64,000 nucleotides of DNA from an uncultured Chloroflexia bacterium (GTDB lineage: Bacteria > Chloroflexota > Limnocylindria > Limnocylindrales > CSP1-4), in assembly GCA_963838285.1 (NCBI GenBank), contig CAWIQP010000004.1, forward strand, positions 397,752 to 461,751, read 5' to 3'. Both the position numbers and the translations under genes were made by a program. Shown one piece after another: positions 3,983-35,820 of the stretch (the stretch's first letter is position 1; each line of letters opens with the position of its first letter). The notes under the pieces were generated by a model, which searched no databases, had not been told where the DNA came from, and saw only the letters and a list, made by a program, of their open reading frames with translations.

Positions 3983-4002
3983 GGCGGCGCGATCGCAGAA
4001 AC

Positions 4003-4039
4003 GTCGACGCCCGCGGCAGCCGCCGCGGGCGTCGACTTT
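4003..4039. terminator. bidirectional intrinsic terminator hairpin between convergent genes
   Basis: Perfect 15-bp inverted repeat gtcgacgcccgcggc / gccgcgggcgtcgac with a 4-nt loop, followed by TTTGG. Confidence 0.6.
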
Positions 4040-4102
4040 GGCTCTCCGGATTTGGGCACCTTACCCAGTGGCGGGCCCCGGCGAACCGGTAGTTGCGAAG
4101 GG

Positions 4103-4318: not shown

Positions 4319-4518
4319 GTGAAACGCTGCGTTCTGTGTTCCTGCGTACCAGGTCCTCGCCGGACCCGAGGCGACGCGAACCGTACAGACTCCACCCAAC
4401 CGTCACAAGCCGTACTTTGGACTAGCGCCATCGGTACCGGCCGTGGCGGCACGATAGGTACCGGTCCCGCCGGCCACCAGTCCCAGTCCGCGTCTCGACC
4501 GGCCGCGGCCGGCGCCGA

Positions 4519-5472: not shown

Positions 5473-5818
5473 TGCGGTTACTCCCTGACGATGCCTGGGC
5501 GGGCCTGTTCCCGCTCGCCTCCGCGGAATCCCCCCCCGAGATACCTCGACGGGGGCCTCGGAAGTCTATCGCGATTCCCCGACCCAAGGCGGACCTCGCT
5601 CCCCCGCCGGCAGCCGCGGGAGTAGTCCTGCGGAGCGGGCACCTCCCGGTCGGTAACCGATTCGCAACCTTCACGAACTTGACCTGGGGCCGCTCCCTAT
5701 TCGACACTCGCCTTTCCGCGACGGAAGATGGCTCCCGCTCTGGAGCAGGCACCGCTGTCGCCACCGCGGGAGGGGCGGTGGAGACGGTTCTGGCGTAGTC
5801 GAGCGAGGACGGCGCAAG

Positions 5819-19228: not shown

Positions 19229-19252
19229 GGGGCCGTCGACGACGTAAGCCGA

Positions 19253-21580
19253 TCAGCTGTTGAGGCGCAGCGTCATCTCCACCGTCGCTTCGGGCGACGC
19301 CGGCAGGACCAGGCTGCCTTCCGCCGTCGTCTCGACCCTGCCGCCGCGCACCGACTCGACCGTCTCGCCGACGAGGAGCAGGCGCCAGCCCGCAGCGGCC
19401 GCCCCGGGCGTCAGCGTGACCTGCTCGCCTTTGCGGCGAAGCTCGAAGGCGGATCCCGGCCGCCCGTCCTGTGACGGAACCGCCACCTTCACGCAGGCGC
19501 CGTCCTCGATGGCGTAGGCCCTCAGAGTCACACCTCGCGGATAGTCGTAGTCCGCCCTGGAGTCGCACTCTCCCATCGGAAGGACCGTATTCGGGCGGAC
19601 GAGCAGGGGCAGGCTGGAATACGGATGGCGCTCCTGGCGCCAGGCCGGCCCCTCGACGACCTCGCCGCTCAGGAGCTTCGTCCATTTGCCGGCCGGAACG
19701 TAGTACGTGACGTCGCCGGACTCCGTGAAAACCGGGGCCACGAGGAGGCGCTCACCGAGCATGTACTGGGAGTCCAGGTACGAGCACCCCGGGTCGTCCG
19801 GGAACTCGAGGCACATGGCCCTCATCGCCGGGACGCCCCGTTCGCTGGCCTCGACCGCCGCCCCGTACAGGTACGGCATGAGGCGATTCTTGAGCTTCGT
19901 GAACGAGCGCATGACGTCGACGGCCTCGTCGTCGAACAGCCACGGCACGCGATACGACTCGTTGGCGTGGAGCCGGCTGTGCGAAGACAGAAGCCCGAAG
20001 GCGAGCCATCGCTTGAAGACCGAAGCCGGAGGCGTTCCCTCGAACCCGCCGATGTCGTGGCTCCAGAAGCCGAAGCCCGAAAGCCCGAGCGAGAGTCCGC
20101 CTCGCAGACTCTCGGCCATCGATTCGAACGTGGACGTGCAATCCCCGCCCCAATGAACCGGGAACCGCTGAGTGCCGGCGGTGGCGGAGCGGGCGAAGAC
20201 GACCGCCTCTCCCTTGCCTCGCCGCTTCTCCAGCAGCTCGAACACGGTCCGGTTGTAGAGGTACGGGTAGAAGTTGTGCATCCGCTCGGGATCGGAGCCG
20301 TCGAAGTAGGCGACGTCGGTGGGAATGCGCTCGCCGAAGTCCGTCTTGAAGCAGTCGACGCCCATGTCGAGGAGCGGTTCGAGCTTGCTCGCGAACCAGG
20401 TGCGCGCCTCCGGGTTCGTGAAATCCACGAGGCCCATGCCGGGCTGCCAGCGGTCCCACTGCCACACGTCGCCGTTTGGTCTCTTCAGCAGGTAGCCCCG
20501 GTCGCGTCCCTCGGCGAACAGCGGCGAGCGCTGCGCGACGTACGGATTGATCCAGAGGCACACCCGCAGCCCGTCCGCCTTCAGCTGCTCGAGCATGCCC
20601 GGCGGATCGGGGAACTGACGCGTGTCCCACTCGAAGTCGCACCAGTTGAACTCGCGCATCCAGAAGCAATCGAAGTGGAAGACGCTCATGGGGAGGTCGC
20701 GTTCGGCCATCCCCCGGATGAAGCTCGTGACTGTCGGCTCGTCGTAGACCGTCGTGAAGGACGTGCTGAGCCACAGCCCGAACGACCAAGCCGGCGGGAG
20801 AGCGGGCCGGCCCGTCAAGGCCGTGTACTTCTCGAGTATCTCCTTGGGACTCGGTCCGTAGATGACGAAGTACTCGAGAGACTGGCCCTCGACGCTGAAC
20901 TGGACGCGCGACACGGTCTCCGAGGCGACCTCGAACGAGACGCGGCCGGGGTGGTTGACGAAGATGCCGTAGCCGCGGTTGGTCAGGTAGAACGGGATGT
21001 TCTTGTAGGCCTGCTCGCTGCTCGTCCCGCCGTCCTCGTTCCAGATGTCGACGGACTGACCGTTCTTCACGAACGGCCCGAATCGCTCGCCCAGCCCGTA
21101 CACGCACTCGCCCACGCCCAGGCCGATCTGGTCGAACAGGAAGTGGCGGCCGGCTTCGGTATCGACGATGCCGATGCCGTTGTGTTCGCTCGAGGTGAGA
21201 ACTCGACCGTCCGCCTCGTAGTCGATGCGCCACTCCTCGTCCCGGCTCACGCGAACGCTCAGCTTGCCCGCGCTGAGCTGGAGGGCTTCGTTCGTGACCG
21301 ACAGGGCCACCGGGCCGGGAGCGATCTCGAGCGGGAACTCGGGCCTTCGCGGGACCTCGCCTTCGAAATGCGTGAGGCGGACTCCGACGACGTCCGGCAT
21401 CGGCGAGCTCAACCGGATGGTCACGAGCGGGCCGCCGAGCGTGTGACCGCGGTGCTCGATCTTCCGGGTCGGCGCGTAGATGGTCAGCGCTCCGGTCGAC
21501 TCGGCAGCGTCGTACGCCTCGACCGGGTGCCAGACCGTGAGTCCGGGACGCATCTGCCAGTAGCCGTCGGAGAACTTCAT
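19253..21580 (-). CDS. glycoside hydrolase family 31 alpha-xylosidase/alpha-glucosidase (YicI-like)
   Basis: GH31 catalytic region WINPYV...KTDFGE (nucleophile Asp) and HWGGD...SHDIGGF (acid/base). Confidence 0.9.
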   Translation of the reverse strand: MKFSDGYWQMRPGLTVWHPVEAYDAAESTGALTIYAPTRKIEHRGHTLGGPLVTIRLSSPMPDVVGVRLTHFEGEVPRRPEFPLEIAPGPVALSVTNEALQLSAGKLSVRVSRDEEWRIDYEADGRVLTSSEHNGIGIVDTEAGRHFLFDQIGLGVGECVYGLGERFGPFVKNGQSVDIWNEDGGTSSEQAYKNIPFYLTNRGYGIFVNHPGRVSFEVASETVSRVQFSVEGQSLEYFVIYGPSPKEILEKYTALTGRPALPPAWSFGLWLSTSFTTVYDEPTVTSFIRGMAERDLPMSVFHFDCFWMREFNWCDFEWDTRQFPDPPGMLEQLKADGLRVCLWINPYVAQRSPLFAEGRDRGYLLKRPNGDVWQWDRWQPGMGLVDFTNPEARTWFASKLEPLLDMGVDCFKTDFGERIPTDVAYFDGSDPERMHNFYPYLYNRTVFELLEKRRGKGEAVVFARSATAGTQRFPVHWGGDCTSTFESMAESLRGGLSLGLSGFGFWSHDIGGFEGTPPASVFKRWLAFGLLSSHSRLHANESYRVPWLFDDEAVDVMRSFTKLKNRLMPYLYGAAVEASERGVPAMRAMCLEFPDDPGCSYLDSQYMLGERLLVAPVFTESGDVTYYVPAGKWTKLLSGEVVEGPAWRQERHPYSSLPLLVRPNTVLPMGECDSRADYDYPRGVTLRAYAIEDGACVKVAVPSQDGRPGSAFELRRKGEQVTLTPGAAAAGWRLLLVGETVESVRGGRVETTAEGSLVLPASPEATVEMTLRLNS

Positions 21581-21678
21581 AGGCTGTCGGCCGCCTCTCG
21601 CGCGTCGCGCTTCAACTTGCCCTCTGAACCCCGACTGAATGGTATCGAAGACGCGTGCCGAGCACCCGGCGGTCGCGG

Positions 21679-24036
21679 TCAGACGGGCAACCGGACCTCG
21701 ATTCGTGGCGAGTCTGCGGCGGGCGTGACGAGCATGCCTTCGGGGGTGCTCTCGGCGGCGGCGCCGGTCACGGCCAGGCCGGGCGCCGCGTTGACCAGCA
21801 TGAGCCGCCACGGCTTGGTTCCCCGCACGCGCTCCGCTACCACGACCCCGGCCGTCCTGGTCACCTCGAAGGCCGAATCGGTTCCGCCGCCCATTTCGGG
21901 CACGGCGACGGCTACCTTCACGCCTTCGGCGAGCTCATAGGCGTGGAGAGTCACTCCGTCCGCGAAGTCGTAGTCCGCCCTGTCGCTCCGAGCGCCCATG
22001 GCAACGACCGATCCGGGCCTGACCAGCAGCGGCAGACCGGCGGCGTCGCAGCGTTCCCGAATCCAGCCCGGTCCCTCCACGACCGAGCGGCTCAGCAGGT
22101 TCGTCCACCTGCCGGCCGGAACGTAGTACGTGGCGTCGCCCGACTCCGAGAATACCGGCGCCACGAGAAGCGACTCGCCGAGCATGTACTGGCGGTCGAG
22201 AAGAGCGGCCGTTGGATCGTCGGGGAACTCGAGCAACATCGCCCGCATCATCGGCACGCCGGTCCGCGAGACCTCAACGGCAGCACGGTACAGGTACGGC
22301 ATGAGACGGCACTTCAGCTGGGCGAAGTCCCTGACGACTTCGACGGCCCGATCGTCGACGAGCCACGGAACGCGGTACGAGTTGCTGCCGTGCAGGCGGC
22401 TGTGCGAGCTCAGCAAGCCGAACTGGGCCCAGCGCTGGTAGACGGCCGGTGAAGGCGTGCCTTCGAAGCCGCCGATGTCGTGGCTCCAGAAGCCGAAGCC
22501 GGACAGACTCAGGGACAGCCCGCCGCGCAGGGTGTCGGCCATGGATGGGAAGGTGCTCTCGCAGTCGCCGCCCCAGTGGACCGGGAAGAGCCAGCTGCAG
22601 GCCGTGGCCGACCGGGCGAAGACCACTGCCTCGCCCCGGCCGCGCCGCTCGCGCAGCAGACCGAAGACGGCCTCGTTGTAGAGGTACGGATAGAAGTTGT
22701 GCATCCGTTCCGGGTCCGACCCATCGTGCCAGACGACATCGGTCGGTATCCGCTCCCCGAAGTCGGTCTTGAAGGAATCGACGCCCTGGTCCAGGAGGGT
22801 CGCAAGCTTGGCGAGATACCAGTCGCGGGCCTTTGGGTTGGTGAAGTCGAGAATGCCCATCCCGGGCTGCCACTGGTCGCTCTGCCAGGTGTCGCCGTTC
22901 GGACGCCTGAGCAGGTAGCCTGCCTCGCTCGCCTCGCCGAAGAGTGGCGAAGCCTGGGCCACGTACGGGTTGATCCAGACGCAGACCCTCAGGCCGCGCT
23001 CGTGAAGCCGAGCCAGCATGCCGGCCGGATCGGGAAAGACCCCTTCGTCCCAGCTGAAGTCGACCCACTGGAACTCGCGCATCCAGAACGAGTCGAAGTG
23101 GAAGACGCTGAGGGGAATGTCCCGCTCCGCCATGCCCTCCACGAAGTGGGTCACCGTCGCCTCGTCGTAGTCGGTGGTGAACGAGGTCGAAAGCCACAGC
23201 CCGAACGACCAGGCCGGTGGCAGAGCCGGCCGGCCGACGAGGCCCGTAAACCGTTCCAGCACTTCCTTCGGACTCGGGCCGTAGATGACGAGGTACTCGA
23301 GCGTCTGGCCCTCGACACTGAAGCCGACCTGGTCGGCGCGCTCCGTCGCGACCTCGAACTCGACCTTCCCAGGATCGTTGACGAAGACGCCGTAACCGGC
23401 ATCGGTCAGATAGAAGGGCACGTTCTTGTACGCCTGCTCCGAGCCGGTGCCACCGTCGCGGTTCCACATGTCGATCGACTGGCCGTTCTTCACGAACGGA
23501 CCGAAGCGTTCGCCCAGGCCGTAGACGTGCTCGCCGACCCCGAGCGAGAGAGCGTCGGCCATGAAGTGGCCGACTCCGTGGCCGCCGTGAGCGTGCCGGC
23601 CGTGGCCCGCCCATTCGATCGCGGCCATGCTCTTCGAGTCGCTCGTGGTCAGAGTTCGGCCGCCGGCCGTGAACTCCAGGCTCCAGGGACCCGTTCGATT
23701 GATGCGCGCGGCCAGCCGGCCCGATCGGAGGCTCGCCGTGGAATCGTCGACCTCCACGTCGACGTCGGGGGCCTGGCCGGGGAAGATCGGAAAGACCGGC
23801 CCTTTGGCTCGACCGCCGGCGTGATGAGTCACGCGCACGCGGATCACATCGACCGTCGGGGACGACAGCTCGACCGTCAGAGCCACGAGATCGTGCATCT
23901 CCGAGCGATCCTGCGGGACGGCAGTGGGCGCAAGCACCGTCAGCGTGTCCTCGGTTGCGGTAACGCGGTGGACTACCGCCGGATACAGCGCGCGCACACC
24001 GTCACGCAACAGCCAGTACCCGTCCCTGAACTTCAT
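21679..24036 (-). CDS. glycoside hydrolase family 31 alpha-xylosidase, tandem paralog
   Basis: Collinear with the downstream GH31 gene at an estimated ~60-65% identity. Same catalytic motifs. Confidence 0.9.
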   Translation of the reverse strand: MKFRDGYWLLRDGVRALYPAVVHRVTATEDTLTVLAPTAVPQDRSEMHDLVALTVELSSPTVDVIRVRVTHHAGGRAKGPVFPIFPGQAPDVDVEVDDSTASLRSGRLAARINRTGPWSLEFTAGGRTLTTSDSKSMAAIEWAGHGRHAHGGHGVGHFMADALSLGVGEHVYGLGERFGPFVKNGQSIDMWNRDGGTGSEQAYKNVPFYLTDAGYGVFVNDPGKVEFEVATERADQVGFSVEGQTLEYLVIYGPSPKEVLERFTGLVGRPALPPAWSFGLWLSTSFTTDYDEATVTHFVEGMAERDIPLSVFHFDSFWMREFQWVDFSWDEGVFPDPAGMLARLHERGLRVCVWINPYVAQASPLFGEASEAGYLLRRPNGDTWQSDQWQPGMGILDFTNPKARDWYLAKLATLLDQGVDSFKTDFGERIPTDVVWHDGSDPERMHNFYPYLYNEAVFGLLRERRGRGEAVVFARSATACSWLFPVHWGGDCESTFPSMADTLRGGLSLSLSGFGFWSHDIGGFEGTPSPAVYQRWAQFGLLSSHSRLHGSNSYRVPWLVDDRAVEVVRDFAQLKCRLMPYLYRAAVEVSRTGVPMMRAMLLEFPDDPTAALLDRQYMLGESLLVAPVFSESGDATYYVPAGRWTNLLSRSVVEGPGWIRERCDAAGLPLLVRPGSVVAMGARSDRADYDFADGVTLHAYELAEGVKVAVAVPEMGGGTDSAFEVTRTAGVVVAERVRGTKPWRLMLVNAAPGLAVTGAAAESTPEGMLVTPAADSPRIEVRLPV

Positions 24037-24176
24037 GAGTCCTCACTCCTGACACACCCGTGATCAGTCTTCGACTCAGACTCGGCGCCACTCCGTGGCC
24101 GCCGCACGAGAACTGCGAATCGAGCCCAACCAGCGCCGAACATGGCGTCCCCCACCGCCCCGAAAGGAGCCGATTC

Positions 24177-25082
24177 CTATCTGTAGGAGCCTGCGGTAAT
24201 CCCTCTCGTCAGAGTCCTCTGGAACATCAAGAAGAACACGACGCACGGCAGCACGCCCAATAGCGCGGACGCCGCCACCTGACTCTCGTTCATCATGTGC
24301 TGACCCTGCGTCACGGCAACCGCGACCGGCACCGTGTACTGCGAATTGGAGACCAGGAAGACCATCGGCAGGTAGAACTCGTTCCAGGTCCAGATGAAGG
24401 CGAAGACCATGAGAACCGCAAGCGAAGGCCTCATGATCGGCACGACCACCTGAATCAGAAGCTGGAGCTTCCCGCAGCCGTCCACCCGTGCCGCATCCAG
24501 AATCTCCCGCGGGAAAGCCCTCATCACCGATGCGATGAAGTACGTCCCGAAGGCGCTCTGGATGACCGTGAACATGATGATCACCGAGAGTTGCGTGTTG
24601 TACAGGCCAAGCGGTTTGGCCATGTAGTAGAGCGGATAGACGATGGCCTCATTGGGGAGGATGTTGGCCATCATGAAGAACACGAGCAGCCAGACGGCGC
24701 CGCGGATCCGCCCGATGCCGAGCGCGAACGCGTTCAGCAGAGACAGGGTTGTCGCCAGAACGGCCACCGACCCGCTGATGACGATGCTGTTTCTAAGGGC
24801 TCCTCCAAAGTCGACCGCATTCCAGAACGACACGATGTTGTTCAGGGTCGGATCCTGCGGCAACGAGAGGGGCCCGTTCGAGGCCAGGTCCTCGGGCGCC
24901 TTGACCGCGTTGATGGCGATGATGGCGAAGGGCGCGAACATGATCACGAGCAGCGCGATCAGACCGAACAGAACGCCATAGGCCTGAACGACCCCGAGCA
25001 CACGCGAACGCCGGGTTCGGGTCCGTCCCGGTCTTCGCGTCCCCGGCCCCGGCCGTTCTTCCGTCGCGATGTTGGCAGTCAT
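24177..25082 (-). CDS. carbohydrate ABC transporter permease (MalG-like)
   Basis: Six TM segments with EAA-like loop. The ATG lies 1 nt after the upstream permease stop. Confidence 0.85.
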   Translation of the reverse strand: MTANIATEERPGPGTRRPGRTRTRRSRVLGVVQAYGVLFGLIALLVIMFAPFAIIAINAVKAPEDLASNGPLSLPQDPTLNNIVSFWNAVDFGGALRNSIVISGSVAVLATTLSLLNAFALGIGRIRGAVWLLVFFMMANILPNEAIVYPLYYMAKPLGLYNTQLSVIIMFTVIQSAFGTYFIASVMRAFPREILDAARVDGCGKLQLLIQVVVPIMRPSLAVLMVFAFIWTWNEFYLPMVFLVSNSQYTVPVAVAVTQGQHMMNESQVAASALLGVLPCVVFFLMFQRTLTRGITAGSYR

Positions 25083-25083
25083 G

Positions 25084-26022
25084 CTAGGAGTCCTCGGCGA
25101 GGTCGCGCCTCGCCTGGAAGTTGATGAAGACGACGGCAACCGCCAGGACGACCACGGTCACGACCGTCGCGACCGCCGACCCCAGCCCAACCTGGTCCTT
25201 CTGGAAGAAGTTCAGGTACGTGTAGTACGAGGGCACGTAGGTCGACGTTCCAGGCCCGCCCCTCGTCAGGACGAACACCTGGGCGAAAACCTTGAACGTG
25301 GCGATCGTCGTCATCAGAACGACCACGAAGATCTCCGGCCGTATCTGGTGGATCGTCACGTGTATGAACGTCTGCCAGCCGGAAGCCCCGTCCAGGGCCG
25401 CCGCCTCGATGATGCTCTGGTCCATCCGCTGAAGCGCGGTGAAGAAGATGACCAGCGGGAACCCGACCTGGAACCAGACCATCATTCCCATCACGGAGAA
25501 GAGAGCGATGTCCGGGTTCCCGAGCCAGTTCTGTGCGAGGACATTGAGGCCGACGGCCTGGAGAATCGAGTTGAGGGCCCCGTCGGGTGTCAGGATCCAG
25601 CCCCACACGACGCCGGCCACCGCCACCGGCATTACCTGTGGCAGATAGAAGCCGGCTCGGAAGAAGCTGGCGGTTTTTGGGCCGAACCTGCGGCTGACAT
25701 AGCTGTACAGCAGGCCGGCGAGGAGCAGGCCGAGGATCGTCGGTATGACGACCATGGCCAGAAGCAGACTCAGCGTGTTCTGGAACGACGCGATGAAGTA
25801 CGGGTCGCTGAGCAGGTTGACGTAGTTGTCGATCCCGACCCACGTTGGAAGTTGAACGCCGTTCCAGGTCGTGAAGCTGACTGCGATCGTGGCCGCGAAG
25901 GGCACGATGATAACGATCAGGAACATCACCAGGCCGGGGAGCAGAAACACCCAATAGCCGCTGTCGAGCGAACTCTTCTTTCTCTTCGCGGCTTTCCCGG
26001 ATATCACCTCAAGTGCCTCCAC
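25084..26022 (-). CDS. carbohydrate ABC transporter permease (MalF-like)
   Basis: Polytopic. EAA motif region IEAAALDGASGWQTF. GTG start. Confidence 0.85.
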   Translation of the reverse strand: MEALEVISGKAAKRKKSSLDSGYWVFLLPGLVMFLIVIIVPFAATIAVSFTTWNGVQLPTWVGIDNYVNLLSDPYFIASFQNTLSLLLAMVVIPTILGLLLAGLLYSYVSRRFGPKTASFFRAGFYLPQVMPVAVAGVVWGWILTPDGALNSILQAVGLNVLAQNWLGNPDIALFSVMGMMVWFQVGFPLVIFFTALQRMDQSIIEAAALDGASGWQTFIHVTIHQIRPEIFVVVLMTTIATFKVFAQVFVLTRGGPGTSTYVPSYYTYLNFFQKDQVGLGSAVATVVTVVVLAVAVVFINFQARRDLAEDS

Positions 26023-26143
26023 ACCCCGCTACGAGGCGCCTCGCCTGCATCGGCGCGCCTCGAATTGCTCATGGAAAGTGCTCTGCCCGCAGGACCGCCG
26101 GAGGAAAGGGTCCCGGCGGTCCTGCGGACGAGAGGGTCTCTGG

Positions 26144-27550
26144 CTAGAGGCTGGGCTTGCCGGCGTTGTACGCCGTGGCGAGCGCGTCGAGGAACTTCGA
26201 CGGGTCTTGCCCGTTCATGAGGTTCTGCACGTTCGAAACGAGGACGTTGTAGAAGCCGGGGACCGGCCAGTCGGGATAGTAGGCCAGTCCGTCGTTCTTG
26301 AGCAGCGTCTGGAAGTTCTGGTTGAACGTCTGGAGCGCCGGATCGGTGATGGCCGTCGCGTCCGCGGCGACCGGCAGGCCGCCGGCCCGACCCATGATGT
26401 TCTGGATCGGCGTGGAGAGGGTGATGTCGATGAAGTCCTCCGCCAGGTCCGCGTTCTTGGACCCGCTCGGAATGACCCAGATGTTACCGCTCGAACCGGG
26501 GGCGAGGGTGTTGCCCGGGAAGAGGAAGATTCCCCACTTGAACTTGGTGATCTCGGTGATGAACGAGCCGTACCACCAGCTGCCGGTGGGGAAGATCGGG
26601 TTCTTGCCTGCCATGAATGCGTCGCCGGCCTGCTGGGCGGTCAGAGACACCTCGTTCTTGGTCAGGTAACCGTTCTTCATCCACTTGGCGAACTCCGTGG
26701 CGCCGAAGGTCAGCGCCGTGTCGTGGAAGTCGACGGCGTTCGCGTACATCTCATAGTCGTTGACCCACTGGCGATTCGCCTGGCTCAGGACCAACTGATA
26801 GAAGATCTGCTGGGCCGGATACTCGGCGCCGCCCGTCGCGACCGGAGTGATCCCGGCCTTGACGAAGGTGTCCATCGCCGTCTCGAAATCGGCGAGGGTA
26901 TTGGGGACCGTGATGTTGTACTTGGTGAACATGTCCTGGTTGTAGTAGACCATGACGTATTCGCCGTACGTCGTCACGCCGTACCACTTGCCGGAGCCCA
27001 TGATCCCCTTCGGGCTGTACATGCAGGTGGTCTGCAGGCTCGGGGTGAGGATCTTGTCCCAGCCCCGCGTCGTGGCGACGCTCGTGAGGTCCGTAAGCAA
27101 TCCCTGCGTCGACAGGAGGCCCGCCGTCGCGTTGCCCTTGTTGTACTCCATCACGTCGGGGGCGGCGCCCGAGTTGAGGATCATCGACGCGTTCGACTGG
27201 ATGTCCTCGAACGCCTTCGCCTCGTGAGTGACGGTGCAGCCGGGGTGCGTGGACTTGAACGTGTCGATCGCGGCGGCCCAGGACTGGCCCATGGCGCTGT
27301 CGGCCAATTCATAGTCCCAGATCGTGAGCGTGCGGCCCGTGTAGTTCGGCGTTGTCGGCGCGGGAACTACCGTCGGGGCCGGGGCCGTGGTGGGGGCCGG
27401 GGCCGTGGTGGGGGCCGGGGCCGTGGTGGGAGTGGCGGAGCTCGAAGAGCATGCCGCGGCGACGGCCGGCAGAACGGTCAGGCCGACTGCGCCCAGCACT
27501 CCCTTCTTCAGGATCTCTCGACGGGTAACTGGACCTTCCAACTCAGGCAT
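26144..27550 (-). CDS. sugar ABC transporter extracellular solute-binding lipoprotein (family 1)
   Basis: Tat-like RREILKKG plus lipobox AAACSS, then a (PAPTTA)n linker and an SBP_bac_1 fold. Confidence 0.85.
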   Translation of the reverse strand: MPELEGPVTRREILKKGVLGAVGLTVLPAVAAACSSSSATPTTAPAPTTAPAPTTAPAPTVVPAPTTPNYTGRTLTIWDYELADSAMGQSWAAAIDTFKSTHPGCTVTHEAKAFEDIQSNASMILNSGAAPDVMEYNKGNATAGLLSTQGLLTDLTSVATTRGWDKILTPSLQTTCMYSPKGIMGSGKWYGVTTYGEYVMVYYNQDMFTKYNITVPNTLADFETAMDTFVKAGITPVATGGAEYPAQQIFYQLVLSQANRQWVNDYEMYANAVDFHDTALTFGATEFAKWMKNGYLTKNEVSLTAQQAGDAFMAGKNPIFPTGSWWYGSFITEITKFKWGIFLFPGNTLAPGSSGNIWVIPSGSKNADLAEDFIDITLSTPIQNIMGRAGGLPVAADATAITDPALQTFNQNFQTLLKNDGLAYYPDWPVPGFYNVLVSNVQNLMNGQDPSKFLDALATAYNAGKPSL

Positions 27551-27772
27551 GTTTCCCTACTCCTCCGTGTCGGGCTCGTTGCCGACTGGCCAACGTAGAC
27601 CCGATCGATTGCGGTGCCTCTGCTGTCCCTCTTGAGATGACACGAGCGCCACGATCGCTGGGTGGCGGACAGCACTCGTCGGGCATTGCCTGTGACTACT
27701 CTCACCTCCTTGAAGTCGCGGCGCTTGTCTTGGTCGCCAAGTCGAATTGGCGGAATTGGCAAGGGAACGGGA

Positions 27773-28846
27773 CTACCTCGTCGCAGCTCGAGCGTGAACT
27801 GGCTTTTGTCGGGATCGGGTGGTCGGATTCGGCGCGGGACCGGTACTGCCTCGAACGACGAGGCGGCAAGGCAGCAGCTGCTGCACGAGTTCGCGGTTGT
27901 CGTCCTCGAGCTGCCCGATCAGCATCTCCACGCCGAGCCGTCCCAGCTGTGCGCTCTGCGGAGTCATCGCCGTCAGCGACGGCAGCGTCATCTCGGCGAC
28001 TCGCGCCGACGAGACCAGGGACACGATCGAGAGATCGTCAGGAACCCTCCAGCCGCGCCGGGCGGCCGCCTGCATGACGCCGAACGTCGCCGGCTCGTTC
28101 ATCGTGACCAGCGCCGTTACGTCGGGGTGTTCCTCTATGAGCTCCTCGAAGACCTCCTGCCCGGCCATCGCCGTGTCTCCGCAGAATCGGCTGATCGGCG
28201 TCAGACCGGCCGAGTTGGCCACCTGGTTGAAGCCGGCAGCCGCTCGAACGGAGGGACCGTAGCCGGCGGAGAACGTTTCCTCGGAATGGTTGAGAAAGGC
28301 GATCTGCCGGTGACCGAGCTCGACCAGATACGTCACGGCATCGCGAGTCGTCTGCTCGAAGTCGATGTCCGCGTAGCCGATGTCGGAAACCGCGGCCGGG
28401 CGTCCGATCATGCTGAACGGGACCCCGATCTGCCGCAGCAGCTCGATGCGTTCGTCGTTCAGCCGCACCTCCATGACCAGCACGCCGTCGACGAGGCTCT
28501 GGCGAACCAGCTGCTGGAGGTCTCCGACCGCGTGGATCTCCATCGGCCACAGGACGAGGTGATACCCGAGGCCCTGCGCAGCCTCGGCGGCCCCGGTGAC
28601 GAATTCGAGCTCGGTGGCGCCGAAGCCACGCGGAAACGCCGGGAACAGCAGGGCGATGATGCGGCTCCGCTTGCTCGCCAGTCCCCGGGCCAGGGCGTGC
28701 GGCTGATAGCCGAGCTCGGCCATCGCCTGCCAGATCCGCAGGCGCGTTTCCTCGGAGACCGGCCTCGTGCCGTTCAAGGCATACGATACGGTGCTCAGGG
28801 CTACGTTCGCCCTCTTGGCCACTTCGAGCATCGTCGGTGCGGGCAT
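27773..28846 (-). CDS. LacI-family transcriptional regulator (probable repressor of the xyloside/xylose locus)
   Basis: N-terminal HTH MLEVAKRANVALSTVSYALNG plus a periplasmic-binding-like sugar-binding domain. An alternative start is at 28831. Confidence 0.85.
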   Translation of the reverse strand: MPAPTMLEVAKRANVALSTVSYALNGTRPVSEETRLRIWQAMAELGYQPHALARGLASKRSRIIALLFPAFPRGFGATELEFVTGAAEAAQGLGYHLVLWPMEIHAVGDLQQLVRQSLVDGVLVMEVRLNDERIELLRQIGVPFSMIGRPAAVSDIGYADIDFEQTTRDAVTYLVELGHRQIAFLNHSEETFSAGYGPSVRAAAGFNQVANSAGLTPISRFCGDTAMAGQEVFEELIEEHPDVTALVTMNEPATFGVMQAAARRGWRVPDDLSIVSLVSSARVAEMTLPSLTAMTPQSAQLGRLGVEMLIGQLEDDNRELVQQLLPCRLVVRGSTGPAPNPTTRSRQKPVHARAATR

Positions 28847-28888
28847 CGATACTCCGAGGAGCGGGTTCCTGCCGGGAGTAAGATCAGC

Positions 28889-28943
28889 GTCGAAGCGCGT
28901 AGTCGAAGCGCGTAGTCGAAGCGCGTAGTCGAAGCGCTTCGAC
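28889..28943. promoter_or_regulatory. operator array: 3 tandem 13-bp units (gtcgaagcgcgta) ending in a perfect 16-bp palindrome GTCGAAGCGCTTCGAC
   Basis: Sits in the lacI/xylA divergent intergenic region. The palindrome has the central AAGCGCTT typical of LacI-family operators. Confidence 0.6.
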
Positions 28944-29063
28944 GGCACGCTAATGGAGTGGCCGGGCCGTGTCAAGATGGAAACTGCAGGCGGGCAGAAT
29001 CGCCCGCGACAGGACCCAATACGGCGGCGGGAATTCGAAGGTCGGGGCCAAGGAGGACAGACC

Positions 29064-30431
29064 GTGACACAGGACTTCTTCGCGGAGGTACCGGGGCGCA
29101 TCCGCTTCGGCGGCCTCGATTCGGGCGACCCGCTGACCTACAAGGTCTACGAGCCCGATCGCCTGGTCCTCGGAAAGCGCATGGAGGACCACCTCCGGAT
29201 CGCGGTTTGCCTGTGGCACTCGTTCGCCTCACCCGGTGGGGACATGTTCGGCTCGGGCACGTTCGACCGTCCCTGGCTGGATGCCGGAGTGGATCCCCTG
29301 GTAGCGGGGCGGGCCAAGCTCGACGCCGCCTTCGAGTTCATCGCCAAGCTCGGCGTCCCGTTCTACTGCTTCCACGACCGCGACATCGCTCCAGAGGGCG
29401 CGACGTTCACCGAGACGAAGTCGCGATTGGCCGCTATGGTCGACTACGCGGCCGAGCAGATGGCTCGGACCGGCGTGAAGCTCCTGTGGGGCACCGCCAA
29501 CCTCTTCGGCCATCCGCGCTACGCCGCCGGCGCGGCCACCAATCCCGATCCCGACGTGTTCGCCTACGCCGCCGCCCAGGTCAAGCTCGTGCTGGAGGCG
29601 ACGAAACAGCTCGGCGGCGCCAACTACGTTCTGTGGGGCGGCCGCGAGGGCTACGACACGCTCCTCAACACCGACCTCGCCCATGAGGAAGCGCAGCTCG
29701 CCCGATTCCTGAGCCTGGTCGCCGAGCACAAGCACCGCATCGGCTTCAGCGGCACTCTCCTGATCGAGCCCAAGCCCCACGAGCCGACCAAGCACCAGTA
29801 CGACCACGATTCCGCGGCCGTCCACGGATTCCTCGTCCGCCACGGCCTGCAGGACGAGTTCCGGCTGAACATCGAGGCCAACCACGCCACCCTGGCAGGC
29901 CACAGCTTCCATCACGAGGTCGCGTACGCCGCGGCCAACGGCATTCTCGGCAGCATCGACGCCAACAGAGGCGACTACCAGAACGGCTGGGACACGGACC
30001 AGTTCCCCAACTCGGTCGACGAGCTGGCCCTGGCCATGTACGAGATCCTGCGCGGCGGAGGCCTCACAACTGGCGGCTTCAACTTCGACGCCAAGCTGCG
30101 CCGCCAGAGCCTGGACCGGACCGATCTGTTCCACGGCCACATCGGCGGCATCGACACGCTCGCCCGGGCCCTGGTCGTGGCCTCGGACATGATCGAACGC
30201 GGGGCCGTCGAGAGGCTTCGGGAGGAGCGCTACGCCGGCTGGTCTGGCGAGCTTGGGAAGTCGATCATGTCGGGCGGCGCCACTCTCGATGATTTGGAGC
30301 GCCGCGCCGCCGCCGGCGAGATCGATCCAAAACCCGTTTCCGGCAGGCAGGAACTGCTCGAGAACCTGGTCAACCAGCAGATCTGGGCGGCGGAACGCCG
30401 GGCCGCGACCGACACGACGCCTGCGGGCTGA
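29064..30431 (+). CDS. xylA: xylose isomerase (class II)
   Basis: Perfect AAGGAGGA RBS 7 nt upstream of GTG. Motifs [31 protein letters not shown]. Confidence 0.95.
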
Positions 30432-30438
30432 GACCTGC

Positions 30439-31473
30439 ATGGGGGGCCTGATGACGGGCCGGCTCGCCGGGATCGACCGGCGACGGGCGCTCGCGATCGC
30501 GGCGCAGGTGGCGCTGGCCGCCTGGTTTGCCTATTGGAGCTGGCAGATCCTGCGCTTCTACTTCGAGAGCTTCCCGTACCACCTCGACATGTTCGGGTTC
30601 GACTCCCGCATATACCTGCACGGAGCCCAGACCTGGCTCGCCGGCGGCGATCCCTGGACCGCCTACGCGTCCCAGCATGCCTGGCCGCAGGGAGCGGGCG
30701 ACGTTCCGTACTACTTCACCGGTCCCCCACCGACCGTCCTGGCATTCGCCCCGTTCGCCTGGCTGCCCGACGCGCCGTTCACGGCCGTCTGGCAGGTTCT
30801 CACTGTCGGATCGGCGCTCTACATCCTTCGAAGGCTGCGCCTGCCCGTCTGGTGGCTGCTGTTCCCACCGCTGGCTCAGGCGGTCTTCATCGGCAACCCG
30901 CACGTGGTCTGCCTGGCTCTGATCCTGAGCGGCTGGAGCGTCCTCCGGGCGCTCGCCCCGGCGGTGAAGGCCTACGCGGTCATACCGATGGTCGGCGAGC
31001 GACAGTGGCGGGCCCTGGGAATCCTGGCGGTTGCGGGCACGCTATCCCTCGTCGCCTTCTGGCCGCTGTGGTCCCAGTACGCGGCCGACTATCAGCACAT
31101 TCAGACGTGGATCTCCAACGCGACGTGGGGTGGATTCTCCGCTTCCCGCGACCCGCGACTCTTCGTGGTTGCGGGCGTGGCGCTGGCGGCGCTCGCGGTC
31201 ATCGACTTCCGCGCGGCCGGCTGGCTCGTGGTTCCGGCGATGTGGCCCGCCGCCGAGTACTTCTACGCTTCGTTCGCGCTGCCACTGCGTTCGCCCTGGC
31301 TCATGGCGGCGCTCGCGGTCCCGGCGACGCAGGCCACCGCTCTGGTGCCGTGGACCATCGTCGCGTACGCCCTGGCGCGGGTCGGACTCGCCGTATTCCG
31401 GTGGTGGGCTCCGGCTCCCGAGGAGAGTGCGCCACCGCCTGGGCTCGATCCCGAGGACGCCGGCGCGCTGTAG
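30439..31473 (+). CDS. polytopic membrane protein (DUF2029/GT87-like, possible mannosyltransferase)
   Basis: About 9 TM segments. Aromatic-rich loops. Confidence 0.55.
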   Translation: MGGLMTGRLAGIDRRRALAIAAQVALAAWFAYWSWQILRFYFESFPYHLDMFGFDSRIYLHGAQTWLAGGDPWTAYASQHAWPQGAGDVPYYFTGPPPTVLAFAPFAWLPDAPFTAVWQVLTVGSALYILRRLRLPVWWLLFPPLAQAVFIGNPHVVCLALILSGWSVLRALAPAVKAYAVIPMVGERQWRALGILAVAGTLSLVAFWPLWSQYAADYQHIQTWISNATWGGFSASRDPRLFVVAGVALAALAVIDFRAAGWLVVPAMWPAAEYFYASFALPLRSPWLMAALAVPATQATALVPWTIVAYALARVGLAVFRWWAPAPEESAPPPGLDPEDAGAL

Positions 31474-31548
31474 TGCTGGCGTCGCGATCGACTCAATCGA
31501 CGTGCGGGCGCGTAGATCCGACGCCGGGCAGCCGCTGGAAGGGCAGGC

Positions 31549-31596
31549 TTGGCGTCCCCGGCGGGATTCGAACCCACGACCCGCCGCTTAGAAGGC
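31549..31596 (-). repeat. 48-bp direct repeat identical to the 3' part (anticodon stem to CCA) of tRNA-Arg(TCT). An att-like site, attR of an integrated islet
   Basis: 31549-31596 is identical to 33519-33566. Identity stops exactly in the anticodon stem. Confidence 0.85.
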
Positions 31597-31793
31597 CAAA
31601 GCGGCTATGCGCAATAGCACCACGCTCAGAGGCCCGAGCGTAACGTGTCCAGTTAGCGTGTCTTGCGCATGGCTCTCCCGCCCAAGTCATGGCTGGAGGA
31701 TTGCTTAGTTGTTGGCCTTGGTCGCGCCAACACAATCCCTCCGGCGTGCAACACCTAGGGGCACTCGGACGTTAGTCTGGTCAGGGAGGCATC

Positions 31794-32294
31794 TTGGAAG
31801 CTGCGACCCGGCTGAGTCCGGCCCATGCTCGTGAACTCCAGACGGCATTCAGGGTCCACATGCCCTGGCTCCGGCGGCGGATCGCGTTGATCGTTGGCGA
31901 TCCCGACGAGGCGTCGGACATCGCCCAGGAAGCCTTCGCCCGCGCCGTGGAGAACTGGCCGCTCGGCTCACGCGACGATGTGGCCCGCTGGCTTGCGACG
32001 GTCGGCATCAGGCTGGCAATCGATGCGCTGCGCCGACGCAGGCGTTGGGGTTTCACGCCGCTCCACGAAACCGACGCGACCTGGGCTCTGGATGTCGACC
32101 CCGACCTCTGGCGGGCGATTGCGACGCTGAAGCCGACAGCTCGTGCCGCGTTGCTGCTCACCGTGCTCGATGGATACACACAGGACGAGGTCGCGGCCGC
32201 GCTCAGCGTGAGGCGCGGCACCGTCGCAAGCTGGCTCTTGCGAGCACGCGACGAGCTGCGACCCCTCATCGGGAGTTCCGAAGATGGACGATAA
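31794..32294 (+). CDS. ECF-type RNA polymerase sigma factor (sigma-70 regions 2 and 4)
   Basis: Region 2 DIAQEAF. Region 4 ARAALLLTVLDGYTQDEVAAALSVRRGTVASWLLRARDEL. TTG start behind a GGGAGG RBS. Confidence 0.8.
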   Translation: MEAATRLSPAHARELQTAFRVHMPWLRRRIALIVGDPDEASDIAQEAFARAVENWPLGSRDDVARWLATVGIRLAIDALRRRRRWGFTPLHETDATWALDVDPDLWRAIATLKPTARAALLLTVLDGYTQDEVAAALSVRRGTVASWLLRARDELRPLIGSSEDGR

Positions 32295-33423
32295 GTTCGA
32301 CGAACGATTGCGCGAGCGGCTCCGGTCGCTCGACGCGGCAGTGCCTCCGGAAACTCGCGTGGTTGGCGTGGCTCCCATCACCAGGCGCCGATCCGCCGTC
32401 CGACTGGTCGGCGTGCCATCGCTCGGGTTGGCGGCAGCCCTCCTGATCGTTCTCGCGGCCGTCATGGTTGCGGGCGGCGCGCCCAAGGCCGCCGGGCCGG
32501 CACGCAGCGAGCCTGCACCGACTTCCGCGGCGCCGACCTCTGCCACGCAGACCTCGGCCGCGCCGACCTCGGCCTCGCGAGTGCTGGGCCAGCCTGACGT
32601 CGTCATGGGGTCGGCCGGCTTTCCGGTTTCGATCGACGGCCAGGCGGTCTACCGCTTCGAATACGCGACGACCTGGGAGAGCCTGACCGGAAGCTTTTTG
32701 GTCGCCGCAGAAGCGCCATCCGGAGCGCCAAGCTGCCCCGGGGCATACCCGTCGCCCACGCCAATGCCCAATGCGGAGTCCGACCTCTTTGCTGATTGCC
32801 CGGAGGTCATCCTCGGCTACACGTCCTCGTCCCAGAGCAGTGGGTTCTCGGGCACGGCGGTCGCGCCAAAAGGGCTGCCGCTCGCAGCCATATCGACCTG
32901 GGGTGGCCATGTTGTGGTGTTCCGGGCCCACACCCACGACCCGGAAGCAGCTCAGTGCGAACGTGCCGATCTTGCTCGATGCGAGGCTGCCCTTGTCGTC
33001 GAGTCGGTCGTCTGGCCGTATCTCCCGTCGAGCATCGACGGCGAGCATGTCTATCTGGGCAGCGACGCGTGGGGCGGCGAAATCGAGAAACTCAGCAAGA
33101 GTTTCTTGATTGGTGGTTTGGTTGGAATGAGCGAGGGCAACGTGGTGAGCGAATGCAAGTCCTCAGCCGCCGCCCGAGAGCTCGCGGTCAACTGCGCCAG
33201 CTTCGACACCGAGTTGGGCGGAGCCTGGATCGCACCGGAGAGCGCAGCCGAGCTGACAAACGGGTGGGTTGTGGTTGTGCGCGCTCATTTCGACCAGACG
33301 CTTGCGGCCCAATGCCCGGCGGACATCAGATACGAGTGTCCGCAGGCCGTCATCGTCGACTCGGTCGTGTGGTCTTCGAACCCGTACGCCTCAAACGGCG
33401 CGACTCCGACACCCTACCGTTAG
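32284..33423 (+). CDS. putative anti-sigma factor: short cytoplasmic N-terminus, one TM, Ala/Pro/Thr-rich linker and a Cys-containing extracytoplasmic domain
   Basis: Its start overlaps the sigma-factor stop, so the two are translationally coupled. The TM is LGLAAALLIVLAAVMVAG. Four CxxxxxxxC-like pairs in the ecto-domain. Confidence 0.6.
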   Translation: MDDKFDERLRERLRSLDAAVPPETRVVGVAPITRRRSAVRLVGVPSLGLAAALLIVLAAVMVAGGAPKAAGPARSEPAPTSAAPTSATQTSAAPTSASRVLGQPDVVMGSAGFPVSIDGQAVYRFEYATTWESLTGSFLVAAEAPSGAPSCPGAYPSPTPMPNAESDLFADCPEVILGYTSSSQSSGFSGTAVAPKGLPLAAISTWGGHVVVFRAHTHDPEAAQCERADLARCEAALVVESVVWPYLPSSIDGEHVYLGSDAWGGEIEKLSKSFLIGGLVGMSEGNVVSECKSSAAARELAVNCASFDTELGGAWIAPESAAELTNGWVVVVRAHFDQTLAAQCPADIRYECPQAVIVDSVVWSSNPYASNGATPTPYR

Positions 33424-33519
33424 GTATCGCCGGTGGTCACGCCTCCTCATGTCGAGACGACCGCGGTTGTGGGCTGTCGCACTCAAGCGGCATGTCGTCC
33501 CGCGCTCAAACAGGGAAGT

Positions 33520-33595
33520 TGGCGTCCCCGGCGGGATTCGAACCCACGACCCGCCGCTTAGAAGGCGGCCGCTCTATCCACTGAGCTACGGGGAC
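33520..33595 (-). tRNA. tRNA-Arg (anticodon TCT), CCA encoded
   Basis: Cloverleaf folds by hand: acceptor GTCCCCG/CGGGGAC, D-arm GCTC/GAGC, anticodon loop CTTCTAA, T-arm GTGGG-TTCGAAT-CCCGC. Confidence 0.9.
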
Positions 33596-33864
33596 ACCGG
33601 TTGGACGCCGCGGCTAGCGTACCCGAAGGCAGGGTGCCGGCCAAGTCGGTCGAGCCCGACTGCGATGGGAAACGGACGCGCCGCCTGGTCTGGTCAGACC
33701 GCCCGCGCGCGGCCCGCGCCACATCCACGGCGGACGACGACCGCGGGCCGAGACCACAGGCAATCGTTCTTTCGTCCCATCGTTGCGCCGCACGACCGGT
33801 GCTAGACTCCGGTCTTCTTCCGTCATCGACCGGTGGCCGGCTGCGCATTTCGGAGGTCGTCATC

Positions 33865-35415
33865 TTGGCATCGCTCTCGCTCGAGCTCGATCGGGCCGAC
33901 CTGCCGGTGACACCCGACCCGCGACTCGCGGCCTCGACTCCGGCGGGCGACGCGCGGGTCTCGACCGCGGGCCAGCTGGCCCTCCAGCTTCCGAGCGAAC
34001 TGCCGCGCCTCTCCATCGAGCCGGAATGGAAGGATCAGCAGCGGCTCTGGGGTCACAGCTTCCATCCCATGTGCTCGTATCTGGCGAGCTTCCCGGCCGG
34101 TCTGGTCCACGCCTTCATCGCCCGCTACACGCGCCCCGGCGACGTGGTCCTGGACCCGTTCAGCGGCCGCGGAACGACGCCTCTTCAGGCTTGCGCCGAG
34201 GGTCGGATCGGCGCCGGCAACGACCTCAACCCGTTCGCCCAGATCCTGACCGCGGCCAAGGTCGATCCGCCCACGAAGTCCGACATCAAGACTCGCGTCG
34301 CGTCGCTCCGTCTCGCCTGGGCCGCCTCCGCCGCCGAGTGGAACGCCCTCGCCGACGCGATCGTGGCGGAGCCGGGCTCGCCAGACATCGTGGTCCCGGG
34401 ACCGGGCAGCCGGCCGATCTCCACCCCCGCGCGGTCGGACTCCGGATCGTCCGGACGATCGAGCACGTCGAGTAGATCGAACGATCGCACCGGCTCCAGC
34501 GCGATCCGGCCGGACTCCGCGGTGCCGGCCGAAGTCGCGCTCGCCTTCCACCCTCGAACGCTCGCTCAGCTGCTCTACCTCCGGGCCGGCCTCAACCCGG
34601 ACGATCGCACCGATCGTTTCGTCCTGGCCACCCTGACGGGCATCCTTCACGGCAAGAGCGCCAGCTACCTCTCGGCGGTCATGCCCAACACGTTCAGCAT
34701 GGCGCCGCGCTACGTCAGGGACTTCGTCGCGCGGACCGACTTCCACTCGCCCGAGCGCGACACGTTCGCGCTCCTCGAAGACAAACTGCGCCGCCTCTAC
34801 CGCCAGCCGCTGCCCGCATCCAGGGGGATCGCCCTTCTCGGCGACGCTCGCGACGCCGGCGTCCGCTTCCGCGAGGCGCTGCGCGCCCGTGGCCTGCCCG
34901 AGCGAGCCCGGCTCGTGGTCACTTCCCCACCCTACCTGCGAGTGGTGAAGTACGGCTACTACAACTGGCTGCGGCTGTGGCTGCTCGGCTACGACGCCTC
35001 GGCCATCGACGAGCTCCTCGACGACGCCCATCACCGGGACGCCTATCTCGTCTTCATGCGCGAGGTCCTGAGCGGTCTGCGTTCCGCCCTGGCCGACGAC
35101 GCGGTGATCGCCCTCGTGATCGGCGACGTCGAAATGGACCGCGGCCGGCCCGCGAACGGTGGCGTGGGCCTGGCCGAGTCCGTCTGGGAGCTGGCCGCCG
35201 CGCCTGAGGGCTATCGGCTCGCGGGCATCGCCACCGACGACGTAGCCGCGGGCCGGAAGATGACGAAGCTGTGGGGCGACGAGGCCGGACAGGCCACCAA
35301 ACTGGATCGGATCCTGGTTCTGGCGACGAGCGAGGCCGGTCGCCGCCGGGCCATCAACGGCGCCACTCTCCCAATCGACTGGGAGTGGCCGCCGCGCTCG
35401 CCGCGTCTGCTGTAG
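33865..35415 (+). CDS. DNA methyltransferase (N6-adenine/N4-cytosine amino-MTase), orphan
   Basis: HP...DPFSGRGTT (motif I, PF01555-like) and VVTSPPY (motif IV) are separated by a ~250-aa low-complexity-containing insert. TTG start behind a GGAGG RBS. The longer ORF from 33601 would abut the tRNA. Confidence 0.7.
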   Translation: MASLSLELDRADLPVTPDPRLAASTPAGDARVSTAGQLALQLPSELPRLSIEPEWKDQQRLWGHSFHPMCSYLASFPAGLVHAFIARYTRPGDVVLDPFSGRGTTPLQACAEGRIGAGNDLNPFAQILTAAKVDPPTKSDIKTRVASLRLAWAASAAEWNALADAIVAEPGSPDIVVPGPGSRPISTPARSDSGSSGRSSTSSRSNDRTGSSAIRPDSAVPAEVALAFHPRTLAQLLYLRAGLNPDDRTDRFVLATLTGILHGKSASYLSAVMPNTFSMAPRYVRDFVARTDFHSPERDTFALLEDKLRRLYRQPLPASRGIALLGDARDAGVRFREALRARGLPERARLVVTSPPYLRVVKYGYYNWLRLWLLGYDASAIDELLDDAHHRDAYLVFMREVLSGLRSALADDAVIALVIGDVEMDRGRPANGGVGLAESVWELAAAPEGYRLAGIATDDVAAGRKMTKLWGDEAGQATKLDRILVLATSEAGRRRAINGATLPIDWEWPPRSPRLL

Positions 35416-35732: not shown

Positions 35733-35750
35733 CGAGGCGAGCCCGAGCGC

Positions 35751-35820
35751 AGCGGGCCGGGCGGTTTCAGCGGGCCGCGCGGTTTCAGCGGGCCCGGCGG
35801 TTTCAGCGGGCCGCGCCGAC
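35751..35820. repeat. tandem repeat, about 3.7 copies of an 18-bp unit (agcgggccgcgcggtttc)
   Basis: Direct reading. Immediately 3' of the small ORF. Confidence 0.85.

Follow-up and report, generated by a model that had tools for sequence, protein, structure and literature searches.

A probable CIME-like, integrase-less cassette carrying an ECF sigma factor module at tRNA-Arg(TCT) of an uncultured Limnocylindrales bacterium, and the family of miniature tRNA cassettes to which it belongs

Integrons are recognised by an attC hairpin, an intI-attI-Pc platform and a recombinase of the Xer/IntI branch. The tycheposons of Prochlorococcus, in turn, are defined by a tyrosine recombinase and a replication module of their own (bioRxiv 10.1101/2020.12.28.424599), cis-mobilizable elements (CIMEs) by the retention of attachment (att) sites in the absence of genes for integration and transfer (PMC5704250), and 15 of the ssrA islands of Dehalococcoides, which are without an integration module, have been proposed to be CIMEs as well (McMurdie et al. 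2011, PMC3146451). The element treated here is a ca. 2-kb “islet” (positions 31,549 to 33,595) within a stretch of 64,000 nucleotides, hereafter “the window”, from an uncultured Chloroflexia bacterium (GTDB order Limnocylindrales; assembly GCA_963838285.1, contig CAWIQP010000004.1, positions 397,752 to 461,751), which is bounded by an intact tRNA-Arg(TCT) gene and a displaced copy of the 3′ part of this gene, and which encodes an extracytoplasmic function (ECF) sigma factor and a membrane protein presumed to be its anti-sigma factor. It is probably a non-autonomous, CIME-like integrative cassette that was inserted by a tyrosine recombinase at the anticodon-loop region of the tRNA gene, and it belongs to a family of miniature integrase-less tRNA cassettes that is a variant of the already known tRNA-integrated, CIME-type elements.

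The preliminary description of this DNA had pointed to a 48-bp identity between the two ends of a flanked segment of ca. 1.9 kb, and both figures hold: the direct repeat (31549-31596 and 33519-33566) is identical at 48 of 48 positions, extending from tRNA nt 30, which lies in the anticodon stem, to the CCA and one base downstream of it, and the interior of the islet (31597-33518) is 1,922 bp long and contains two genes only. The block of identity begins two bases ahead of the anticodon loop, which is a classical sublocation of integration in tRNA genes, reportedly described as such by Williams in 2002. No such repeat is expected in the window by chance (0 in shuffles), and, as it is exactly 48 bp long and the bases flanking its two copies differ, it is not a part of some larger segmental duplication, a case that would have spoken against integration. 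The search for further core copies, run within the 64-kb window, returned just the one pair: there is no third copy even with 3 mismatches allowed, and a search of low stringency revealed no additional att site or att remnant, the far end of the ca. 12-kb sugar-utilisation cluster that adjoins the islet included. The flank beyond the distal core copy lacks the motif of the proximal (P′) arm, and the distal core is therefore the last unit of the array. An Islander-type island is expected to have an intact tRNA gene at one end and, at the other, a displaced 3′ fragment of this gene as a direct repeat, which is just what is seen here, whereas the integrase that such an island should contain is missing from both the islet and the window. 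The hidden Markov model (HMM) used for this was built from 80 Xer-like integrases and did detect distant control integrases elsewhere, yet none of the 629 open reading frames (ORFs) of the window matched it at E <= 10, which bears out the earlier claim that no integrase is present; the claim that replication genes are lacking stands too, the islet carrying nothing besides its two genes.

What occupies the same tRNA-Arg in related genomes speaks for integration as well (L-numbers are labels of the fetched comparison loci or contigs; the named relatives and the fetched genomes are Limnocylindrales/Chloroflexota metagenome-assembled genomes). The islet, with both of its cores perfect, is also present in two more assemblies of this species, L001/L087 and L086, whose identity to the window is 99.7%. 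In the relatives, the genes flanking the site are 87-92% identical (in L008: abhydrolase 91%, methyltransferase 87%, a 75-aa protein 92%) while the contents of the site differ. L008 itself holds, in the order of tRNA-Arg, a 306-aa integrase, Replic_Relax, an antitoxin, a sigma/anti-sigma pair homologous to that of the window and two further genes, an island bounded by a 52-nt direct repeat with a spacing of 8,480 bp; at the syntenic site of L064 there is an integrase element of 4.4 kb whose arm is the same; a larger integrase element occupies the tRNA-Arg locus of L065-68; in L065, L088 and L089 an integrase lies directly 3′ of tRNA-Arg and shows the same P′ motif; and L063 has a 5.6-kb integrase-free cassette with a tetratricopeptide repeat (TPR) gene at the same tRNA-Arg. 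Occurrence at the syntenic tRNA-Arg is, in other words, sporadic, other DNA being found there in L008, L063, L064 and L065, and, since the cargo at one and the same site differs between relatives, the site is a hot spot with different occupants and not the seat of an ancestral gene pair.

That the two genes might nevertheless be such an ancestral pair, framed by a repeat of chance or duplicative origin with no integration having taken place, had been named beforehand as a refuting case, and the composition of the islet offers it some comfort, as neither overall GC nor tetranucleotides are outliers. The “visibly lower” GC reported earlier is a marginal drop when taken overall (66.0%, with the window averaging 69.0%; 10th percentile among stretches of equal length), and in tetranucleotide distance the islet is inconspicuous; what does stand out is the GC content at third codon positions (GC3), at 0.77 in both islet genes versus 0.874 +/- 0.026 (minimum 0.81) in 35 other genes of the window, i.e., about 4 standard deviations lower. 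Together with this aberrant GC3, the zero chance expectation, the other DNA held by relatives at this position, and a repeat ending exactly at tRNA nt 30, as it does in dozens of related units, make the ancestral pair so improbable that it hardly needs to be entertained.

The inner ends of the islet match those of the integrase-bearing islands in the same tRNA-Arg of relatives, which supports the att-site integration proposed in the preliminary description. The distal (P) arm and the inner distal end of the L008 island (L008 13631-13698) share 80% identity, and the same value holds for the longer segment 31546-31665 over 120 nt; the P′ arm aligns with the 35-90 nt separating tRNA-Arg from the integrase gene in L008, L064, L065, L088 and L089, as well as with the trailers of the array units dealt with below, and window positions 33484-33626 are 87.5% identical over 144 nt to the tRNA of L008 plus the 35 nt before its integrase. 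The proximal motif GGGACGACATGCCGC adjoins every integrase of the clade, and the boxes CGTGTCCAGTTAGCGTGTC and GGCATGTCGTCC were singled out as candidate functional sites of the arms. Neither an Rfam family nor a structure predicted by RNAalifold was found in the arm, and a structured RNA or attC-like hairpin was rejected, a 7-bp helix proposed by hand being 62.7% paired versus 60.1% in shuffles. In some P′ arms (L043 1500-1640, L040 1-82 and L049 5700-5751, metagenome orientation) the core-adjacent box is CAGTTATCGTGTCGT, the same as at the end of the P arm, so that in those cases the two boxes, their order and their orientation are common to both arms.

How widespread these ends are became apparent from a scan of JGI metagenome contigs with the distal-arm motif GAGGCCCRAGC-N4-CGTGTCCAGTTAKCGTGTC. 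It matches 31 contigs and adjoins a tRNA 3′ half, ca. 30 nt away, in 31/31 of them, the half being of the tRNA-Gly(TCC) type in 27 and of the tRNA-Arg(TCT) type in 4; on 9 contigs the intact tRNA is present too, 0.67-7.5 kb from the arm-adjacent fragment. A search with the 47-nt half recovered 62 direct core copies, with 15 contigs having two to five, and, of the 50 distinct fragments located via the core alone (thus free of motif-search bias), 46 are followed by the arm. Between the copies there are 27 complete intervals of 496-5,652 bp (median 1,737 bp), and every internal junction reads P′ trailer, 47-nt half, P arm, this unit of ca. 150 nt (85-94% identity, its P′ side reaching ca. 90 nt with the second box included) being the only sequence common to most of the contigs. 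The cargo is otherwise diverse and its genes point both ways: enzymes (a kinase, dehydrogenases, peptidases, methyltransferases, a GH3 hydrolase), regulators (MarR and Crp types, a cyclase), toxin-antitoxin parts (PIN, AbiEi), transporters and two insertion sequence (IS)-type transposases. None of the 27 complete cassettes has an integrase by the HMM, nor do the islet and array cassettes have a replication module; over 329 kb, i.e., the array contigs and ten other fetched loci, the HMM detected three control integrases and one remnant. The latter, at L045 2455-2850 (metagenome orientation), is a frameshifted C-terminal fragment of ca. 60 aa from an L008-type integrase, situated beside a tRNA-Gly half, and is the sole integrase trace in the arrays.

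As for phages, IMG/VR contains no match to the 46-nt core or to the strict arm motif, and a phage origin was not upheld by a 16-mer search there, only one (L077) of its 13 matches being genuine. L077, filed as viral in IMG/VR, and L004 (positions 1-7250 and 4031-9160, respectively) encode a D5-type primase, an N6/N4 methylase and a small terminase subunit (Terminase_4) beside att units of the family, and these elements are satellite-like members of the same tRNA-Gly arrays, or members resembling phage-inducible chromosomal islands (PICIs).

The recombinase responsible would presumably be the 306-aa Xer-like integrase of the autonomous members, such as the one beside tRNA-Arg in L008 or L064. 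This integrase scores below every equivalog cut-off and lacks an arm-binding N-domain; all five relatives that are at least 69% identical and had their context fetched (L064, L065, L088, L089), along with L008's own, sit at tRNA-Arg, and a 63% relative sits at tRNA-Leu(TAG). It may act on the cassette ends in trans, or in cis once an autonomous element has landed alongside (accretion). Excision would yield a circle with P′-core-P, for which the predicted attP junction is ACAGGGAAG, the 48-bp core and CAAAGCGGCTATGCG, i.e., position 33518 joined to 31597 via a single core, whereas the predicted empty attB would read GGAAGGGCAGGC, the full tRNA-Arg and the right flank; the circle might then re-enter a tRNA, with the islet being circle-derived DNA in the sense of cargo plus a split attP-type site. 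Mobility of the cassette is suggested by its distribution among sequenced loci. Between the two options left side by side in the preliminary description, a decayed island remnant and a minimal cargo module mobilised in trans, the evidence leans to the latter, because the same cassette architecture recurs at tRNA-Gly halves in L004 and L046 and because dozens of other integrase-free cassettes share the arms.

The first of these options, in its strict form, takes the islet for an immobile scar, i.e., an integrase-bearing island from which ordinary deletions removed the integrase and other genes, with the repeats simply left over. The decay route from an integrative and conjugative or an integrative and mobilizable element is described in the CIME literature (PMC5704250), the frameshifted remnant beside a core copy in L045 tells that integrase decay does occur, and all three strains carry the islet, one of them with a frameshifted anti-sigma gene. 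An inert scar is nevertheless unlikely: the cores are perfect at either end, and the motifs of the family persist in the two arms; the identical order of arm, promoter, sigma, anti-sigma and arm is found at a core of a different tRNA type in L004 and L046; and L045 is alone among the array contigs in retaining any integrase trace. With integrase traces missing and arms of ca. 60-90 nt always spared, independent random deletions are hard to invoke. Derivation of the islet from an L008-type island by simple deletion, in particular, was rejected, because the sigma module is inverted relative to the ends in L008, the only integrase-bearing island carrying it, when compared with the window; L008 also has no internal att unit.

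Mobilisation of the cassette in trans has, however, its own difficulties. The inversion of the module relative to the arms means that descent from an island such as L008 would not be simple either; a cassette would have to swap a Gly core for an Arg core; no integrase was found for the tRNA-Gly arrays; and most of the array contigs are short-read metagenome assemblies that are possibly chimeric at the ca. 150-bp repeats, which makes the order of the cassettes uncertain. Neither an excised circle nor an empty site was seen, and the comparison of sister genomes for the latter gave a divided result: relatives hold other DNA at the locus, but all three assemblies of the species are occupied (an exact look-up of the left-flank GT87 protein had no match, and a look-up of the 75-aa neighbour led only to the two further strains). 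In L086, moreover, a 7-nt deletion (corresponding to window 33312-33326) frameshifts the last ca. 40 codons of the 379-aa gene, its ORF running on through the tRNA region, which reflects either genuine decay or an error in the assembly of long reads.

A different way of accounting for the arrays would be a dedicated capture platform, in which a host-resident, integron-like recombinase inserts and shuffles cassettes at the tRNA. The small size of the units (median 1.7 kb, one or two genes), the conserved ca. 150-200-nt unit between them, up to five units per contig, and the similarity of the sole integrase of the family, devoid of an arm-binding N-domain, to Xer and integron integrases are all in keeping with it. 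It is nonetheless quite improbable, given that no recombinase gene is fixed by the tRNA in the arrays, the constant neighbour of tRNA-Arg being a DNA methyltransferase; that the integrases found sit inside att-bounded elements; that cargo genes are of mixed direction, with at least the sigma cassette having a putative promoter of its own; and that an attC-like hairpin is unsupported. A broader extension of the cassette reading, put forward here tentatively and with more doubt than confidence, would credit the Limnocylindria with a gene-cassette system anchored at tRNA genes. In it, a small Xer-like recombinase, supplied in trans from rare autonomous members, would insert, stack and exchange cassettes behind tRNA-Gly(TCC) and tRNA-Arg(TCT); these cassettes would number in the hundreds, be free of integrases and 0.5-6 kb long, and each would have a conserved attP-type unit of ca. 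150-200 nt made up of P′ arm, 47-nt tRNA half and P arm. Were this true, it would be a functional parallel to integrons built from a tRNA-integrating element, with the islet of the window as one cassette of many.

Set against the described systems, the islet has what defines a CIME: attL and attR are retained (perfect cores and both family arms), and genes for integration and transfer are absent. An origin by decay, as far as the family is concerned, has the integrase remnant in L045 as its only trace, and the inverted module in L008 speaks against simple deletion. With the ICESt1-type CIMEs of Streptococcus thermophilus (PMC5704250) the family shares attL/attR in the 3′ end of the target gene, the lack of integrase and transfer genes, and a tandem arrangement with related elements (accretion), whereas the element in the window is far smaller (1.9 kb; family median 1.7 kb), arrays extend to five units or more, cassettes with unrelated cargo have strongly conserved arms in common, integration targets the anticodon loop of a tRNA, and no linked conjugative element was seen. 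The ssrA islands of Dehalococcoides (PMC3146451) are likewise from Chloroflexota, are stacked in tandem behind a single small-RNA gene, and have direct repeats of its 3′ end with conserved repeat-adjacent sequence; they differ by their serine recombinase (DsiB, CcrB-like), 20-bp tmRNA repeats and multi-gene content, compared with the Xer-like tyrosine recombinase, the 47-48-bp tRNA halves and the mostly one or two genes per unit seen here. Tycheposons (bioRxiv 10.1101/2020.12.28.424599) resemble the family in being tRNA-targeted tyrosine-recombinase elements in tandem, with partial tRNAs between them, niche cargo and PICI-like members in the arrays (paralleled here by L077 and L004, with their D5 primase, methylase and small terminase subunit neighbours), and differ in their defining integrase and replication module, both of which the islet and the array cassettes lack; the islet itself is thus not a tycheposon.

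The likeness to integron cassettes lies in small one- or two-gene units with one recombination site each, head-to-tail arrays and a recombinase of the Xer/IntI branch, but the family has neither an attC hairpin nor an intI-attI-Pc platform, no recombinase lies beside the tRNA in the window or the arrays, gene orientations are mixed, the cassettes appear to bring promoters of their own, and the anchor is a tRNA gene. What sets the family apart is that its units are very small, that the arms are strongly conserved even though the cargo is unrelated, that integrases are nearly absent and that the enzyme is Xer-like. If its cassettes are indeed mobilised in trans, an abundant and poorly known lineage of soil, peat and freshwater would be trading single genes (regulators, enzymes, transporters, toxin-antitoxin parts) in a compact manner at two tRNA loci, and the arrays would be both a tyrosine-recombinase counterpart of integron arrays and a miniature of the island arrays of Dehalococcoides and Prochlorococcus. 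For annotation, this is also a warning, as integrase-based island finders miss the whole class of such cassettes.

Table 1. Features of the tRNA-Arg(TCT) islet (window coordinates).
Feature	Position	Strand	Details
Distal core copy	31549-31596	minus	Displaced 3′ part of tRNA-Arg(TCT), nt 30-76, plus one base
Distal (P) arm	31597-31665	none	Motif GAGGCCCGAGC-GTAA-CGTGTCCAGTTAGCGTGTC at 31629-31662
ECF-type promoter-like motif	31748-31774	plus	GCAAC-N17-CGTTA, upstream of the sigma gene
ECF sigma factor, 166 aa	31794-32294	plus	TTG start behind AGGGAGG; Pfam Sigma70_r2 and Sigma70_r4_2
Presumed anti-sigma/sensor protein, 379 aa	32284-33423	plus	11-nt overlap with the sigma gene
Proximal (P′) arm	33463-33518	none	Boxes GCGGTTGTGGGC (33463-33474) and GCGGCATGTCGTCCC (33487-33501)
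Proximal core copy	33519-33566	minus	3′ 47 nt of the tRNA (33520-33566) plus base 33519
Intact tRNA-Arg(TCT)	33520-33595	minus	ARAGORN; Rfam tRNA, 69.8 bits

The cargo of the islet (Table 1) is, as had been noted before, a sigma factor and a membrane protein, and nothing else, with the anti-sigma role of the latter being the interpretive part of that statement. The sigma factor contains the sigma-70 regions 2 and 4 without region 3, in a protein of ECF size (166 aa), and scores 55 bits against NCBIfam sigma70-ECF (TIGR02937; cut-off 42.9), staying below the cut-off of the SigE family. The 379-aa protein consists of a conserved N-terminal helix, one transmembrane helix, a Pro/Thr/Ala linker and two Cys-containing repeat domains, and has no family match and no recognisable anti-sigma domain in Pfam or NCBIfam; it represents a conserved family with 61 relatives, few of which are source-named, those being mostly from Limnocylindrales. 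Its AlphaFold2 model is of moderate quality (pLDDT 68; 75-90 for the ectodomain), and Foldseek found nothing below E = 0.1 for it in the PDB. The overlap of the two genes, their conserved pairing (a gene of this type is always 3′ of the sigma gene in homologous loci) and the conserved N-terminal helix suggest that it acts as an anti-sigma factor, a single-pass membrane protein that would probably keep the sigma factor inactive until some extracytoplasmic cue arrives. The linker is encoded by 15-nt tandem repeats (32520-32578) and its length varies among homologues.

The GCAAC-N17-CGTTA motif, conserved 5′ of the homologous sigma genes in an alignment with L004, L005 and L008, occurs once in the window (0.06 expected) and may well act as a promoter, so that the cargo looks like a self-regulating, self-contained ECF module with an ECF-type promoter of its own; as there is no second occurrence within the window, no regulon members could be named there. 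The module parallels the SigE-type ECF pairs of actinomycetes in that the sigma factor is confined to regions 2 and 4, that the gene of a membrane protein overlaps its gene downstream and that an AAC...CGT-type promoter precedes the operon, and departs from them in a partner without a recognisable anti-sigma domain and an ectodomain without a solved relative.

Acquisition of such a pair by att-site integration, regarded as unusual in the preliminary description, is not so in this lineage, given that homologous sigma/anti-sigma pairs are present on at least four other tRNA-integrated backbones (Arg, Gly, Leu-CAA and Lys), and the ECF module with its uncharacterised Cys-rich sensor domain amounts to a plug-in unit on several unrelated integrative backbones. 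L004 has the layout of the window (fragment, arm, promoter, sigma, anti-sigma, trailer, fragment) with cores of the tRNA-Gly type and 80% DNA identity to window 31629-33465, and L046 is 92.7% identical to L004 over exactly the cassette and its two units, the neighbours being unrelated on both sides. Other copies accompany RepSA and an integrase, at tRNA-Leu(CAA) in L005-7 and at tRNA-Lys(TTT) in L015. These elements, which resemble actinomycete integrative and conjugative elements, agree in RepSA (86%) and a 141-aa protein (92%), while their integrases are only 33% identical and of opposite orientation; the integration module has clearly been swapped, and the sigma pair is present on both. The sigma-pair copies in L010, L012-14 and L022 show no att features, and those of L010, L013, L014 and L022 have neither flanking repeats nor an integrase within 10 kb. 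At L025 8479-11254, with no tRNA nearby, a 70% homologue of the GT87-like left-flank gene of the window is divergent to a distant (39%) paralogue of the anti-sigma-like protein.

The ca. 12 kb of the window that adjoin the distal att copy on its outer side (19250-31548) are taken up by sugar-utilisation genes (two GH31-type hydrolases, ABC transporter genes, LacI, XylA2-like, GT87-like), which are absent here in L008 and L063, whose synteny with the window sets in again at 10.1-19.2 kb. On the 5′ side of tRNA-Arg, the neighbour that stays constant in the window, L008, L063, L064 and L065 is an N6/N4 DNA methyltransferase gene (33865-35415, plus strand), which a 1-nt deletion at 34822 splits into ORFs of 360 aa and 166 aa in strain L001, and further on, between tRNA-Arg and tRNA-Glu(CTC), three 18-nt tandem repeats (CAGCGGGCCGGGCGGTTT; 35750-35816) lie in or beside a small ORF.

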